This document shows positions 1 to 4,376 of a stretch of 4,376 nucleotides of DNA, piece after piece; position 1 is the first letter of the stretch, and each line of letters begins with the position of its first letter. The stretch is taken from positions 1 through 4,376 of the IMG/VR virus record IMGVR_UViG_3300039357_000038; one strand, 5' to 3'. Below the pieces are notes generated by a model. It saw only the letters and a list, made by a program, of their open reading frames with translations, was not told the DNA's origin and ran no database searches. The stretch comes from a virus (taxonomy: Duplodnaviria > Heunggongvirae > Uroviricota > Caudoviricetes). Both the position numbers and the translations under genes were made by a program.

Positions 1-294
1 GACAGCATACTCAAAGCCGGTCAGCATCGTTATCAGCGGGCATTTATCCAGCGATTAAATAATGGGCGCTGGCATGTTATGCAACGTCTTCCCCAGGCCA
101 GATATGAGGAGGGCAATGACGACAAGGGCAGGAAAAAGCGTAATCGCCTTCCCATTCAGGTGGTGAAAATCCCGATGGCGGCCCCACTGAAACAGGCGTT
201 TGATGAGAATGTTGACCGTATCCGGCGTGAACGCCTGCCCGGAGAACTGGCATCCGCGCTGAAACAACAATTGAGGATTGCGATAAAACGATGA
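1..294 (+). CDS. Z: Minor tail protein Z, 5'-truncated by the window edge (C-terminal ~97 aa present; the reading frame is open from position 1, the track ORF 79..294 merely starts at an internal Met)
   Basis: Frame 1 is open from nt 1 to the TGA at 292-294. The translation ...AFIQRLNNGRWHVMQR...[44 protein letters not shown] closely resembles the lambda gpZ C-terminus as recalled. It sits immediately upstream of U, as in lambda. Confidence 0.8.
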   Translation, partial: DSILKAGQHRYQRAFIQRLNNGRWHVMQRLPQARYEEGNDDKGRKKRNRLPIQVVKIPMAAPLKQAFDENVDRIRRERLPGELASALKQQLRIAIKR

Positions 295-686
295 AACATA
301 CTGATATCCGTGCTGCAGTGCTGGATGCACTCGAGCAGCATGAACACGGGGCGACGCTGTTTGATGGTCGCCCCGTTGTTTTTGACGAAGAGGATTTTCC
401 TGCGATCGCGGTTTATCTGACGGATGCAGAGTATACCGGTGAAGAGCTGGATGCAGATACCTGGCGGGCCACACTGCATATTGAGGTGTTTTTACCGGCA
501 CAGGTACCTGATTCGGAGCTCGATCAGTGGATGGAAAGCCGGATTTATCCGGCGATGACTGTGATCCCGGCACTGGCAGGACTGATTACCACGATGGTTA
601 CGCAGGGCTATGAGTATCGTCGTGATGACGATATGGCGTTATGGAGCTCTGCGGATCTGACTTATTCCATTACATACGAGATGTGA
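291..686 (+). CDS. U: Minor tail protein U (tail terminator protein), 131 aa
   Basis: ORF 291..686, product [87 protein letters not shown]...[20 protein letters not shown], is near-identical in length and sequence to lambda gpU as recalled. Its ATG overlaps the Z stop (ATGA at 291-294). Confidence 0.92.
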
Positions 687-693: not shown

Positions 694-1440
694 ATGGCAA
701 CACCAAATCCCCTGGAGCCGGTAAAAGGTGCCGGTACCACTCTGTGGGTTTACAACGGCAAGGCTGATGCTTATGCAAACCCGTTGTCAGACGATGACTG
801 GCAGCGACTGGCTAAGGTGAAGGATCTGACGCCGGGCGAGATGACGGCTGAATCCTACGATGATAACTACCTGGATGATGAAGACGCGGACTGGACCGCG
901 ACCGGGCAGGGACAGAAATCTGCAGGTGATACCAGTTTTACGCTGGCCTGGAAACCGGGAGAGGAAGGCCAGAAAGGGCTTATAGGCTGGTTTGAAAGCG
1001 GCGATGTCCGGGCCTATAAAATCCGTTTTCCGAATGGCACGGTGGATGTGTTTCGTGGCTGGGTCAGCAGTATCGGTAAGGCCGTGACGGCGAAAGAAGT
1101 GATCACCCGCACGGTGAAAGTCACTAACGTGGGTAAACCTTCTGTAGCGGAAGAACGCAGCAAAATTACGCCGGTCACTGCGATTAAGGTAACGCCGACA
1201 GGTACGGTTGAAAAAGGGAAAACAACCACCCTGACCGTTACTGTGGAACCGGAAAATGCAACGGATAAGACATTCAGGGCGATTTCCGCCGATCCATCAA
1301 AAGCCACCATTAGCGTGAAAGATATGACGATTACTGTGACGGGGGTTAAGGATGGAAAAGTCAGCATCCCTGTGATTTCCGGTAATGGTCAGTTTGCTGC
1401 GGTGGCTGAAATTACCGTTAATAATGTGCCGGGTGGCTAA
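694..1440 (+). CDS. V: Major tail tube protein V, 248 aa
   Basis: ORF 694..1440. The N-terminal ~155 aa (..[12 protein letters not shown]...[62 protein letters not shown]...[40 protein letters not shown]) match lambda gpV as recalled. The position after U and before G agrees. Confidence 0.93.
1160..1437 (+). other. C-terminal Ig-like (Big_2-type) domain of the major tail protein V
   Basis: The C-terminal ~90 aa ([84 protein letters not shown]) have the alternating beta-strand character and T/V-rich composition of the bacterial Ig-like domain known on lambda gpV. Domain boundaries are approximate. Confidence 0.6.
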
Positions 1441-1458
1441 AGAGCTGAGAGATAAGCG

Positions 1459-1890
1459 ATGTTCCTGAAAACAGAACAATTTGAATATAACGGTGTATCC
1501 GTCATGCTTTCTGAGCTGTCTGCGCTGCAGCGTATTGAGCATCTTGCCCTCCTGAAACGGCGGGCAGAAGAGGCTGAAGCCAGCGGCAACCTGCAGGTGA
1601 GTGTGGAAGATCTTGTCAGAACCGGCGCGTTTCTGGTGGCGATGTCCCTGTGGCATAACCATCCACAGAAAACGCAGTCACCGTCAATGAATGAGGCCGT
1701 GATGAAGATAGAGCAGGAAGTGCTCACCACCTGGCCTGCCGATGCCATTGCCCGGGCGGAAGACGTGGTGTTGTGCCTGTCCGGGATGATCGAAGCTGTT
1801 CGTCCGGATACTGATATTACTGAAGTGGCGAAAAATAACACGCTGACTGATGATGATTTTTCTGCGGGAAAGTCTTCGACGGCGAGCTGA
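1459..1890 (+). CDS. G: Tail assembly chaperone G (zero-frame product), 143 aa
   Basis: ORF 1459..1890, product MFLKTEQFEYNGVSVMLSELSALQRIEHLALLKRRAEEAE...TGAFLVAMSLWHNHPQKTQ.PSMNEAV..IEQEVLTTWP...SAGK.ST.S, matches lambda gpG as recalled. It contains the slippery heptamer near its 3' end. Confidence 0.92.
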   Translation: MFLKTEQFEYNGVSVMLSELSALQRIEHLALLKRRAEEAEASGNLQVSVEDLVRTGAFLVAMSLWHNHPQKTQSPSMNEAVMKIEQEVLTTWPADAIARAEDVVLCLSGMIEAVRPDTDITEVAKNNTLTDDDFSAGKSSTAS

Positions 1891-2330: not shown

Positions 2331-4376
2331 TCTTGTTATTGACCTGAGTCTGGATGCGGTTCGTTTCGATGAGCAGATGACCCGCGTAAGGCGTCATTTT
2401 TCAGGACTGGAGACTGACGCCAGAAAAACCGCCAGTGCTGTTGAGCAGGGGCTGAGCCGCCAGGCGCTGGCTGCACAAAAAGCCGGGATATCAGTCGGGC
2501 AGTATAAAGCCGCCATGCGTATGCTACCCATGCAGTTCACCGACGTGGCCACGCAGCTTGCCGGTGGTCAGAATCCCTTCCTTATCATGCTGCAGCAGGG
2601 CGGTCAGGTGAAGGACTCCTTCGGCGGGATGATCCCCATGTTCCGGGGGCTTGCTGGTGCGATCAGCCTGCCAATGGCCGGTGTCACCTCGCTGGCGGTG
2701 GCGACCGGTGCGCTGGCGTACGCCTGGTACCAGGGGGATTCCACGCTTTCAGCGTTTAATAAAACCCTGGTTCTTTCCGGTAATCAGTCAGGACTGACGG
2801 CAGAGCGCATGCTTACGCTCTCCAGAGCCGGACAGGCAGCAGGGCTGACGTTTAACCAGGCGAGTGAGTCACTGGCAGCCCTGGTGAATGCCGGTGTGCG
2901 TGGTGGTGAACAGTTTGATTCCATCAACCAGAGTGTCGCGCGTTTTGCGTCTGCCTCCGGTGTGGAAGTGGACAAGGTTGCAGAGGCTTTCGGAAAACTG
3001 ACCACCGACCCGACGTCGGGACTGATGGCGATGGCGCGCCAGTTCCGTAACGTGACGGCAGAGCAGATTGCGTATGTTGCGCAGCTGCAGCGTTCCGGAG
3101 ACGAGGCCGGGGCATTGCAGGCGGCGAACGAGGCTGCCACGAAAGGCTTTGATGACCAGACCCGCCGCCTGAAAGAGAACATGGGGACGCTGGAAACCTG
3201 GGCGGATAAAACAGGGAAGGCGTTCAAATCGATGTGGGATGCCATTCTGGATATTGGTCGTCCTGATACCGCGCAGGAGATGCTGATTAAGGCAGAGACT
3301 GCGTTTAAGAAAGCAGACGACATCTGGAATCTCCGCAAGGATGATTATTTTGTTAACGATGAAGCGCGAGCGCGTTACTGGGATGATCGTGAAAAGGCCC
3401 GTCTTGCGCTTGAAGCCGCCCGAAAGAAGGCTGAGCAGCAGACTCAACAGGACAAAAATGCGCAGCAGCAGAGCGATACCGAAGCGTCACGGCTGAAATA
3501 TACCGAAGAGGCGCAGAAGGCTTACGAACGCCTGCAGACACCGCTGGAGAAATATACCGCCCGTCAGGAAGAACTGAACAGGGCCCTGAGAGACGGGAAA
3601 ATCCTGCAGGCGGATTACAACACGCTGATGGCGTCGGCGAAAAAGGATTATGAATCGACGCTGAAAAAGCCGTCCGGTGTGAAGGTGTCTGCCGGTGAGC
3701 GTCAGGAAGACCGGGCGCATGCAGCCCTGCTGGCGCTTGAAACTGAGCTCCGGACGCTGGAGAAGCACAGCGGTGCGAATGAGAAAATCAGCCGGCAGCG
3801 CCGTGATTTATGGAAAGCGGAAAGTCAGTATGCGGTCCTGAAAGAGGCTGCCACGAAACGGCAGTTATCCGGGCAGGAAAAATCCCTGCTGGCTCATGAG
3901 AAAGAAACGCTGGAGTACAAACGCCAGCTGGCTGAGCTGGGCGACAAGGTTGAATACCAGAAACGGCTGAATGAGCTGGCACAGCAGGCGGCACGGTTTG
4001 AAGAGCAGCAGAGCGCGAAGCAGGCCGCCATCAGCGCAAAAGCCCGTGGTCTCACTGACCGTCAGGCGCAGCGGGAGTCTGAAGCGCAGCGTCTTCGTGA
4101 CGTGTATGGCGATAATCCGCAGGCGCTGGCCCGGGTCACCGGGGCACTGAAACAGACATGGGCGGATGAAGACATGCTGCGCGGTGACTGGCTGGCCGGG
4201 CTGAAGTCCGGCTGGGGGGAGTGGACGGAAAGTGCGACGGACAGTTTTTCGCAGGTTAAAAGTGTGGCCACGCAGACCTTTGATGGTATTGCACAGAATA
4301 TGGCGGCGATGCTGACCGGCAGTGAACAGAACTGGCGGGGATTCACCCGTTCGGTGCTGTCCATGATGACAGAAAT
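2311..4376 (+). CDS. H: Tail length tape measure protein H, 3'-truncated by the window edge (first ~688 aa present)
   Basis: Frame 1 is open from the ATG at 2311 to the window end. The translation MSQPVGDLVIDLSLDAVRFDEQM.RVRRHFSG...QALAAQKAGISVGQYKAAMRMLP.QFTDVATQLAGGQ...QQGGQVKDSFGGMIPMFRGLAGAI.LPM.G.TSLAVATGALAYAWYQG.STLS.FNKTLVLSGNQ.GLTA.RML.LSRAGQAAGLTFNQ.SESL... and later ...WNLRKDDYFVNDEARARYWDDREKARLALEAARKKAEQQTQQDKNAQQQSDTEASRLKYTEEAQKAYERLQTPLEKYTARQEEL...GIAQNMAAMLTGSEQNWR.FTRSVLSMMTE matches lambda gpH extensively as recalled. It overlaps the T 3' end by 20 nt. The reverse-strand track ORFs at 2784..3338, 2869..3447, 2924..3115, 3353..3541, 3487..3768, 3788..3994 and 4062..4364 all lie inside it. 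Confidence 0.94.
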   Translation, partial: MSQPVGDLVIDLSLDAVRFDEQMTRVRRHFSGLETDARKTASAVEQGLSRQALAAQKAGISVGQYKAAMRMLPMQFTDVATQLAGGQNPFLIMLQQGGQVKDSFGGMIPMFRGLAGAISLPMAGVTSLAVATGALAYAWYQGDSTLSAFNKTLVLSGNQSGLTAERMLTLSRAGQAAGLTFNQASESLAALVNAGVRGGEQFDSINQSVARFASASGVEVDKVAEAFGKLTTDPTSGLMAMARQFRNVTAEQIAYVAQLQRSGDEAGALQAANEAATKGFDDQTRRLKENMGTLETWADKTGKAFKSMWDAILDIGRPDTAQEMLIKAETAFKKADDIWNLRKDDYFVNDEARARYWDDREKARLALEAARKKAEQQTQQDKNAQQQSDTEASRLKYTEEAQKAYERLQTPLEKYTARQEELNRALRDGKILQADYNTLMASAKKDYESTLKKPSGVKVSAGERQEDRAHAALLALETELRTLEKHSGANEKISRQRRDLWKAESQYAVLKEAATKRQLSGQEKSLLAHEKETLEYKRQLAELGDKVEYQKRLNELAQQAARFEEQQSAKQAAISAKARGLTDRQAQRESEAQRLRDVYGDNPQALARVTGALKQTWADEDMLRGDWLAGLKSGWGEWTESATDSFSQVKSVATQTFDGIAQNMAAMLTGSEQNWRGFTRSVLSMMTE
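2629..2730 (+). other. Hydrophobic, Gly/Ala-rich segment in the N-terminal region of tape measure H (putative membrane-interacting or tube-lumen segment)
   Basis: Residues ~107-140 of H (MIPMFRGLAGAISLPMAGVTSLAVATGALAYAWY) form a ~34-aa uncharged hydrophobic stretch flanked by charged sequence. Seen directly in the translation; function is inferred. Confidence 0.4.

Follow-up and report, generated by a model that had tools for sequence, protein, structure and literature searches.

The exchange of Ig-like domains between phages and the mosaicism of lambdoid genomes are established concepts. The Hendrix/Juhala model, drawn from HK97/HK022 comparisons, reportedly describes lambdoid mosaicism with sharp identity transitions at gene or domain borders and with modules found on different backgrounds. 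A class of phage Ig-like domains appended by frameshifting, for example in SPP1 gp17.1*, is said to go back to Fraser et al. in 2006. In phage lambda, deletion of the tail tube protein's C-terminal domain (gpV-C) lowers activity about 100-fold, while tails still form (PMC8718954). This domain protrudes, is flexible, pairs with the domain of the neighbouring subunit and takes several surface arrangements (PMC10721106, PMC12617516). In the N-terminal domain (gpV-N) the region 149-153 is dynamic, and the acidic loop residues D61 and D62 are required for ring-to-ring growth (PMC8718954). Weak adhesion of phage Ig-like domains to carbohydrates is a proposed hypothesis and experimentally unverified (PMC8718954, PMC5717097). 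A prior catalogue of gpV Ig alleles or of their mosaicism in E. coli prophages was not found in our literature search.

A lambdoid tail module with a gpV-type tube protein

The window, i.e. the whole stretch of 4,376 nt analyzed here, was found to comprise the left-hand portion of a lambdoid tail module with the gene order Z'-U-V-G-T-H (Table 1). The V gene is placed between the terminator gene U and the chaperone genes G/GT, upstream of the tape measure gene H. A prophage in the chromosome of E. coli IBS28 was 98.8% identical to the whole window, and DNA related to the window was detected in 3,745 of 5,426 complete E. coli genomes. The canonical lambda -1 frameshift heptamer G GGA AAG was present at 1866-1872, 6 codons ahead of the G stop codon, and the -1 frame was open from 1872 to 2330 and coded for the T domain (VFDGELNFALRLAREMGRPDW...); thus, the gpGT fusion chaperone is conserved. 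Two minus-strand open reading frames (1014-1367 and 1297-1662) were considered as genes and rejected as spurious, their sole Pfam match being DUF7549 with an E-value of 0.008, under the cut-off. Around V, no promoter-like and one terminator-like site were detected, numbers that were not above those of shuffled sequences.

Table 1. Coordinates of genes, protein domains and recombination-related segments in the window.
Feature	Position (nt)	Strand	Evidence or remark
Z 3' end (Z')	1-294	+	Pfam Minor_tail_Z, 5e-24
U (terminator)	291-686	+	Phage_tail_U, 2e-61
V, 248-aa lambda gpV-type major tail (tube) protein	694-1440 (including stop)	+	ORF, Pfam, synteny
Tube-forming N-terminal domain, Phage_TTP_12, residues 18-152	745-1149	+	Whole N domain: residues 1-155, nt 694-1158
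Highly conserved stretch closing the N domain	1021-1110	+	85-95% nt identity even to lambda; putative left homology arm
Flexible inter-domain linker, residues ~148-159	1135-1170	+	AlphaFold2 pLDDT <50 at residues 148-156
Big_2 Ig-like domain, residues 160-238 (Pfam)	1171-1407	+	Fold reaches residue 243, nt 1422
Divergent recombination patch against nearest alleles, ~200-250 nt	1236-1458	+	dS, max-chi-square, nt identity
Allele-specific C-terminal tail NNVPGG, residues 243/244-248	1423-1437	+	Differs by allele
G (chaperone)	1459-1890	+	Phage_TAC_2, 1e-50
Conserved 5' end of G	1459-1530	+	83-98% identity to all allele classes; putative right homology arm
T frame	to 2330	+	Phage_tail_T
H (tape measure), first 688 codons	from 2311	+	TMP_2, Tape_meas_lam_C

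Both domains of V were assigned by Pfam. Phage_TTP_12 (PF16461) was matched over its complete profile (1-135 of 135) with an E-value of 6.3e-69 and 230.6 bits at a cut-off of 26.1, and Big_2 (PF02368) with 4.5e-18 and 65.4 bits at a cut-off of 22.8. When residues 156-248 were searched alone, Big_2 was found with 2.8e-19 and 69.3 bits at the same cut-off. A sequence search of the PDB with V yielded lambda gpV (6P3E, 7.7e-122) and the NMR structures of its N domain (2K4Q, 1.4e-86) and C domain (2L04, 5.8e-26). An AlphaFold2 model of V, built on 32 homologues, showed eight beta strands at residues 160-243 with a pLDDT of 82-91; the low-confidence segments 1-12, 49-77 and 148-156 coincided with the dynamic loops of monomeric gpV-N. 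Using Foldseek, the modelled C domain was superimposed on 2L04 with a target-normalised TM of 0.81 (rmsd 3.2 A over 89 columns) and on the Big_2-CBM56 structure 7QUZ with an rmsd of 2.0 A. The residues D61 and D62 are present in V (YLDDEDADW) and were invariant in alignments of 4 and of 32 sequences. By every sequence, fold and synteny feature that could be tested, V belongs to the gpV/Phage_TTP_12 family and carries a Big_2 domain. The Ig-like domain had already been placed at the C terminus of V by the first-pass annotation, at 1160-1437, i.e. from the second base of codon 156 to the last sense base. The Big_2 match, the eight strands and the superposition with 2L04 bear this out, and the tail NNVPGG as well as the Ig signature quoted there are contained in the translated 694-1440 reading frame.

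A frameshift-appended Ig domain was considered as well and rejected, as the N and Ig domains are encoded in one uninterrupted reading frame; the sole slippery heptamer noticed within the window was that of G-T. Judged from the identity to gpV-N and from the Foldseek matches 7T2E/8K36 (TMt 0.72), V would polymerise as stacked hexameric rings around the tape measure, with the Ig-like domain predicted, from lambda structures, to sit on the exterior of the tube.

Divergence from lambda gpV and weaker constraint on the Ig domain

The first-pass annotation had described the C domain as apparently more diverged than the N domain from lambda gpV, the degree of divergence being given as uncertain. We recomputed the comparison from the deposited sequence J02459. 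Identity to lambda gpV was not uniform: 131 of 155 positions (84.5%) were identical in residues 1-155 and 57 of 90 (63.3%; Big_2 core 65.5%) in residues 156-248 (Fisher exact p = 2.6e-4), and lambda gpV ends in TAS where V carries NNVPGG. The described asymmetry therefore holds with the deposited sequence, together with a significant Big_2 match. It was also found against closer relatives, with 98.7% (N) and 79.6% (C) identity to the V protein of VT1-Sakai, and with differences at 1 of 155 N and 13 of 88 C positions (p = 1e-5) to the commonest IMG/VR allele. At the DNA level, the N domain overall was 79% identical to lambda. Synonymous divergence from lambda (dS 0.95 for N, about 1.7 for C) was near saturation, so that different ancestry and rate differences are inseparable in the lambda comparison. 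We also considered V-C as an outlier within the tail module and rejected this, since the Z 3' end (63% amino acid identity, omega 0.27) and G (69%, omega 0.34) were about equally diverged from lambda at higher omega than V-C (65.5%, omega 0.16). The contrast between the N and C domains comes in part from an unusual conservation of V-N.

For the family as a whole, a search with the N domain yielded 83 full-length homologues, which were compared in 3,403 pairs. Mean pairwise identity was 83.4% for the N and 57.2% for the C domain, the C domain was the less conserved one in 91% of the pairs, and the identities of the two domains correlated over the pairs (Spearman 0.65). In 32 diverse homologues, about 78 of 155 columns were invariant in the N domain and 3 in the Ig domain (P186, R195, G221), with mean column entropies of 0.48 (N) and 1.32 (C) in the 32-sequence alignment. 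Nei-Gojobori dN/dS was calculated against five alleles, both for each domain and for 15-codon windows moved along the gene. Omega was 0.04-0.12 for the N domain (0.12 against lambda) and 0.15-0.25 for the C domain. The Ig domain is thus under purifying selection that is weaker than on the tube domain throughout the family. We were aware of the fact that many of the chimeric proteins in the set of 83 homologues are single-member metagenome predictions on short contigs and may be assembly chimeras; some of the chimeric proteins were checked at the DNA level in isolate genomes or in multi-member clusters. In four proteins (P0016, P0091, P0118, P0063) the V N domain was fused to Phage_tail_L, to Ail/Lom or to a His/Ala-rich fibre-like tail, and these fusions are probably artefacts of frameshifts, assembly or gene calling.

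Homologues of only 160-175 aa were found in Proteus, Morganella and Xenorhabdus (L128-L136). They showed 66-69% identity to the N domain with a full TTP_12 match (E about 1e-66) and ended in a short charged tail, directly followed by a gene for a G-like chaperone in the same U-V-G synteny. Judged from their sequences, they would be natural "Ig-less" tubes in the same genomic setting.

Exchange of the Ig segment by recombination

The comparison with close relatives was the more informative one. V was carried at 93-100% identity by 80 IMG/VR loci, the commonest allele (termed "B") being of the VT1-Sakai type. The allele of the window was termed "A". Against B, U and V-N of the window were 97-100% identical; identity fell to 57-87% at about 1200-1450, recovered to 90-100% beyond about 1470, with gene G beginning at about 90%, and amounted to 95-100% from about 1600 and to 100% from about 1620. 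The divergent patch (Table 1) takes up two thirds of the Ig domain, on its distal side, and continues through the C-terminal tail and the stop codon to the spacer between V and G; its nucleotide identity to B is 77%, compared to 99% for the N domain. Synonymous divergence followed the same course, with a dS of 0.038 in codons 1-155 and of 0.888 in codons 183-243, a 23-fold difference (Fisher p = 3e-11 for synonymous changes), and with pS rising from 0.037 to 0.52. A max-chi-square scan of third codon positions placed a breakpoint at about 1236, with differences at 5 of 180 positions to the left and 31 of 69 to the right, a value reached in none of 2,000 permutations.

The 68 unique V DNA sequences fell into two groups by the identity of their codons 183-243 to the window, one at 99.5-100% and one at no more than 82%, and intermediate values did not occur. 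Both the A and the B Ig alleles were found on both N subtypes (about 99% and about 96%), which is a four-gamete configuration. Reciprocal recombinants were observed at the conserved GKTTTLTV strand, L031 carrying B to the left and A to the right, and L035 the opposite arrangement. Over the homologue pairs discordance occurred in both directions: for 74 of 303 pairs with at least 95% identity in N the identity in C was at most 70%, and for 137 of 287 pairs with at least 95% in C that in N was at most 88%. These data show that the Ig-coding segment was replaced wholly or partly by recombination. Modular exchange, one of the two explanations suggested in the first-pass annotation, was observed in the form of whole-domain and sub-domain replacements on near-identical flanks. 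With the nearest relatives as reference, the breakpoint does not coincide with the N/C boundary but follows GKTTTLTV (about 1236), within the Ig domain. The comparison with other alleles puts it at about 1100, in the conserved end of the N domain.

The alleles differ in their C-terminal tails, with NNVPGG for A, TAS for lambda, TEAGAAG for B, and TDGAAG, TDEAAEPAS and others. The exact 29-nt tail sequence of the window was found in 52 IMG/VR contigs. The P0021 allele (486 member sequences) was only 47-67% identical to the window at the nucleotide level from about 1100 to about 1460, with 44% protein identity in the Ig domain, while U, V-N and G were 92-100% identical. The complete E. albertii chromosome CP117615 carries a window-like V N domain and is lambda-like (90-100%) from about codons 112-147 onwards, also in G and T. 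In complete E. coli genomes, DNA of at least 95% identity was found in 1,601 records for the N and in 443 for the C domain; the C-domain DNA had 0 records at 90-95% and 1,189 at 80-90%. Identical C-domain DNA of 281 nt was present in CFT073, IAI39, CE10, APEC O18 and others, and 247 records were at least 99% identical. In a diversity profile over five allele classes, values dropped to 0.022 at 1056-1100, stayed at 0.27-0.50 over 1146-1460 and were 0.09-0.10 thereafter; the variable Ig segment is thus enclosed by the best-conserved DNA of this region. For the alleles of E. albertii CP117615 and of the P0021 type the crossovers fall within 1021-1110, and these positions suggest that the conserved flanks of the Ig segment act as homology arms.

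Several database entries required separate treatment. CP025907 (Escherichia phage 204576; L002, 4001-4728) was the nearest "phages" record by DNA (92.9%), an unannotated record in which a frameshift in V leaves a 96-aa reading frame; it was left out of the protein comparison for this frameshift, which is due to an error of sequencing or marks the prophage as defective. Matches at 77% in genome_contigs were tried as independent alleles, rejected and counted as lambda copies. V genes of the lambda type were met on short contigs or contigs of about 1x coverage (L087-L100, L124, L132, L135, L138, L140, L143, L145) in assemblies of Neobacillus, Oceanobacillus, Pseudomonas, Kitasatospora, Shewanella, Chromatium, Bradyrhizobium and others, and were identical or near-identical to lambda wherever the full V gene was read. 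These are almost certainly no true prophages and represent lambda DNA contamination (size marker or spike-in).

Further mosaic joints were visible elsewhere in the module. In H, the segment 3241-3480 was 93-100% identical to lambda with flanks of 80-90%, and 33-68% identical to PhiR12_2 with flanks of 88-98%, forming a sharp mosaic patch inside the tape measure gene; additional divergent patches were located at about 2491-2550 and 4081-4170. A segment of about 60 nt in the 3' end of Z (61-120) was present in the window and in L040/L035-type relatives and missing from lambda, PhiR12_2 and L031-type relatives, making Z polymorphic for an indel in its C-terminal part. VT1-Sakai (L003) has V (96% in the N domain) and segments of T/H in common with the window, but its U and G were essentially unalignable with the window as DNA (45-68% at 1-690 and 1500-1860). 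Its mosaic joints coincide with the U/V boundary on one side; on the G side, those at about 1500 and about 1860 fall within G instead of at the gene ends.

Explanations for the diverged Ig domain and comparison with known systems

We consider it highly probable that the Ig domain diverged more than the tube domain through the combination of weaker constraint and cassette swapping by recombination among related E. coli phages. The N domain would build the hexameric rings and make all essential contacts, and would for this reason be kept almost constant. The Ig domain would be an accessory decoration, attached flexibly by its linker and making few contacts elsewhere in the virion. It tolerates more amino acid change throughout the family and can be replaced wholly or partly by homologous recombination; we infer that its tolerance of exchange is owed to the flexible linkage and the small number of contacts. 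Recombination between co-resident or co-infecting lambdoid phages would replace the Ig segment, with left crossovers in the GKTTTLTV strand or in the very conserved DNA that closes the N domain, and right crossovers in the 5' end of gene G. The window carries the discrete Ig allele A, with its tail NNVPGG, on a tail module near-identical to that of phages with other alleles. Judged from the literature, the domain itself would likely serve in a weak accessory adhesion to carbohydrates of the cell surface or mucus, raising the efficiency of infection. Mosaic patches were also found in G, T and H of the window, so the Ig patch is not unique.

Relaxed purifying selection alone, with the C domain evolving faster along the genealogy of the N domain and without recombination, would agree with the lower conservation of C in most homologue pairs, with the correlation between both domains, with the higher omega in C and with the dispensability of the Ig domain in some homologues. 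However, it leaves unexplained the 23-fold jump of dS within one gene, the bimodal identities without intermediates, the four-gamete configuration with its reciprocal recombinants, and the discordance of homologue pairs in both directions. We therefore regard it as very unlikely; as sole cause relaxed selection is refuted by these observations, and it is kept in our explanation as one of its two components.

Still less probable is an origin of the excess amino acid change without any DNA exchange, by positive (diversifying) selection acting in situ on the exposed Ig domain, e.g. towards a match with different host-surface glycans. This had been the second suggestion of the first-pass annotation. 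The domain is surface-exposed, carbohydrate binding has been proposed, discrete and highly diverged alleles coexist in E. coli, and in the Ig domain polar positions vary more than hydrophobic ones against lambda (23 of 53 and 7 of 31, respectively). Hydrophobic positions changed rarely and conservatively, though, and a higher rate of polar than of hydrophobic change is the pattern expected of a fold kept under purifying selection. Against B, codons 183-243 showed a dN of 0.149 at an omega of 0.17; the highest omega of any 15-codon window, found between A and B, was 0.36. With omega in the range given above in every C-domain comparison, and with synonymous divergence rising as much as non-synonymous divergence, diversifying selection at the level of the domain was rejected. 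Moreover, omega against lambda was higher in G and Z than in V-C, and the recombinant alleles and the four-gamete pattern testify to DNA exchange. A few positively selected sites may exist in the Ig domain. An artefact, by a faulty lambda reference in the annotation or by a chimeric assembly of the window, has a next to negligible probability: the annotation did not use the deposited lambda sequence and some related database proteins look chimeric, but the asymmetry was reproduced with J02459, the 281-nt C-domain DNA is identical in many complete genomes, and the IBS28 chromosome matches the window over its whole length.

Beyond annotation the meaning is small, as the gpV-type protein, its Ig decoration, the dispensability of the latter and its tendency to be exchanged are all documented. 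The Ig segment at about 1146-1460 is a diversity hot-spot of the U-V-G region, located between near-invariant DNA; consequently, when E. coli prophages are typed by V, the N domain will not predict the exposed domain. The natural alleles A, B, C (PhiR12_2), lambda-type and P0021-type offer ready isogenic swaps for testing the binding of tail-tube Ig domains. That the discrete alleles (A, B, C, lambda-type, P0021-type) are kept in E. coli prophages by balancing or frequency-dependent selection is a speculation that we consider unlikely. If it were true, each allele would have its own weak-binding specificity (O-antigen, capsule, gut-mucus glycans) or would provide escape from a tube-sensing host defence, the flanks would be maintained as recombination arms, and the tail tube would be a second exchangeable determinant of host range or niche besides the tip fibre.

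Compared to lambda gpV (2K4Q, 2L04, 6P3E/7T4F/8IYK), V has the same two domains, a flexible linker and a similar length (248 versus 246 aa in lambda), in the same gene order Z-U-V-G/T-H and with the shared loop residues D61/D62. It differs in the first Ig loop, which is one residue longer in lambda (TPASTS versus TPT-GT in V), and in the tail. The lambda Ig domain lies along the tube, and its loss carries the cost in activity noted at the outset. The V proteins of VT1-Sakai (BAB19571) and PhiR12_2 (XSB41801) are 98-99% identical to V in the N domain and share the Ig fold, and most relatives have the same U and G; their Ig alleles (B: ...SFEPESATDK...NGVATGKVQ...TEAGAAG; C in PhiR12_2) differ, with 77-82% nucleotide identity in codons 183-243 and the sharp breakpoint at about 1236. 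T5 pb6 (Big_2), SPP1 gp17.1* (FN3) and YSD1 (Big_1) carry, as V does, a peripheral flexible C-terminal Ig-like domain on the tube protein. These domains are proposed accessory adhesins and are not needed for tube assembly in several systems; the Ig families and modes of attachment differ, and SPP1 gains its Ig domain by a programmed frameshift, whereas V is an in-frame fusion. The Ig swap observed here is ordinary lambdoid mosaicism, known in kind and as the field would expect, and constitutes no new type of element; in the present case, one class of boundaries falls at a conserved beta strand within a domain.
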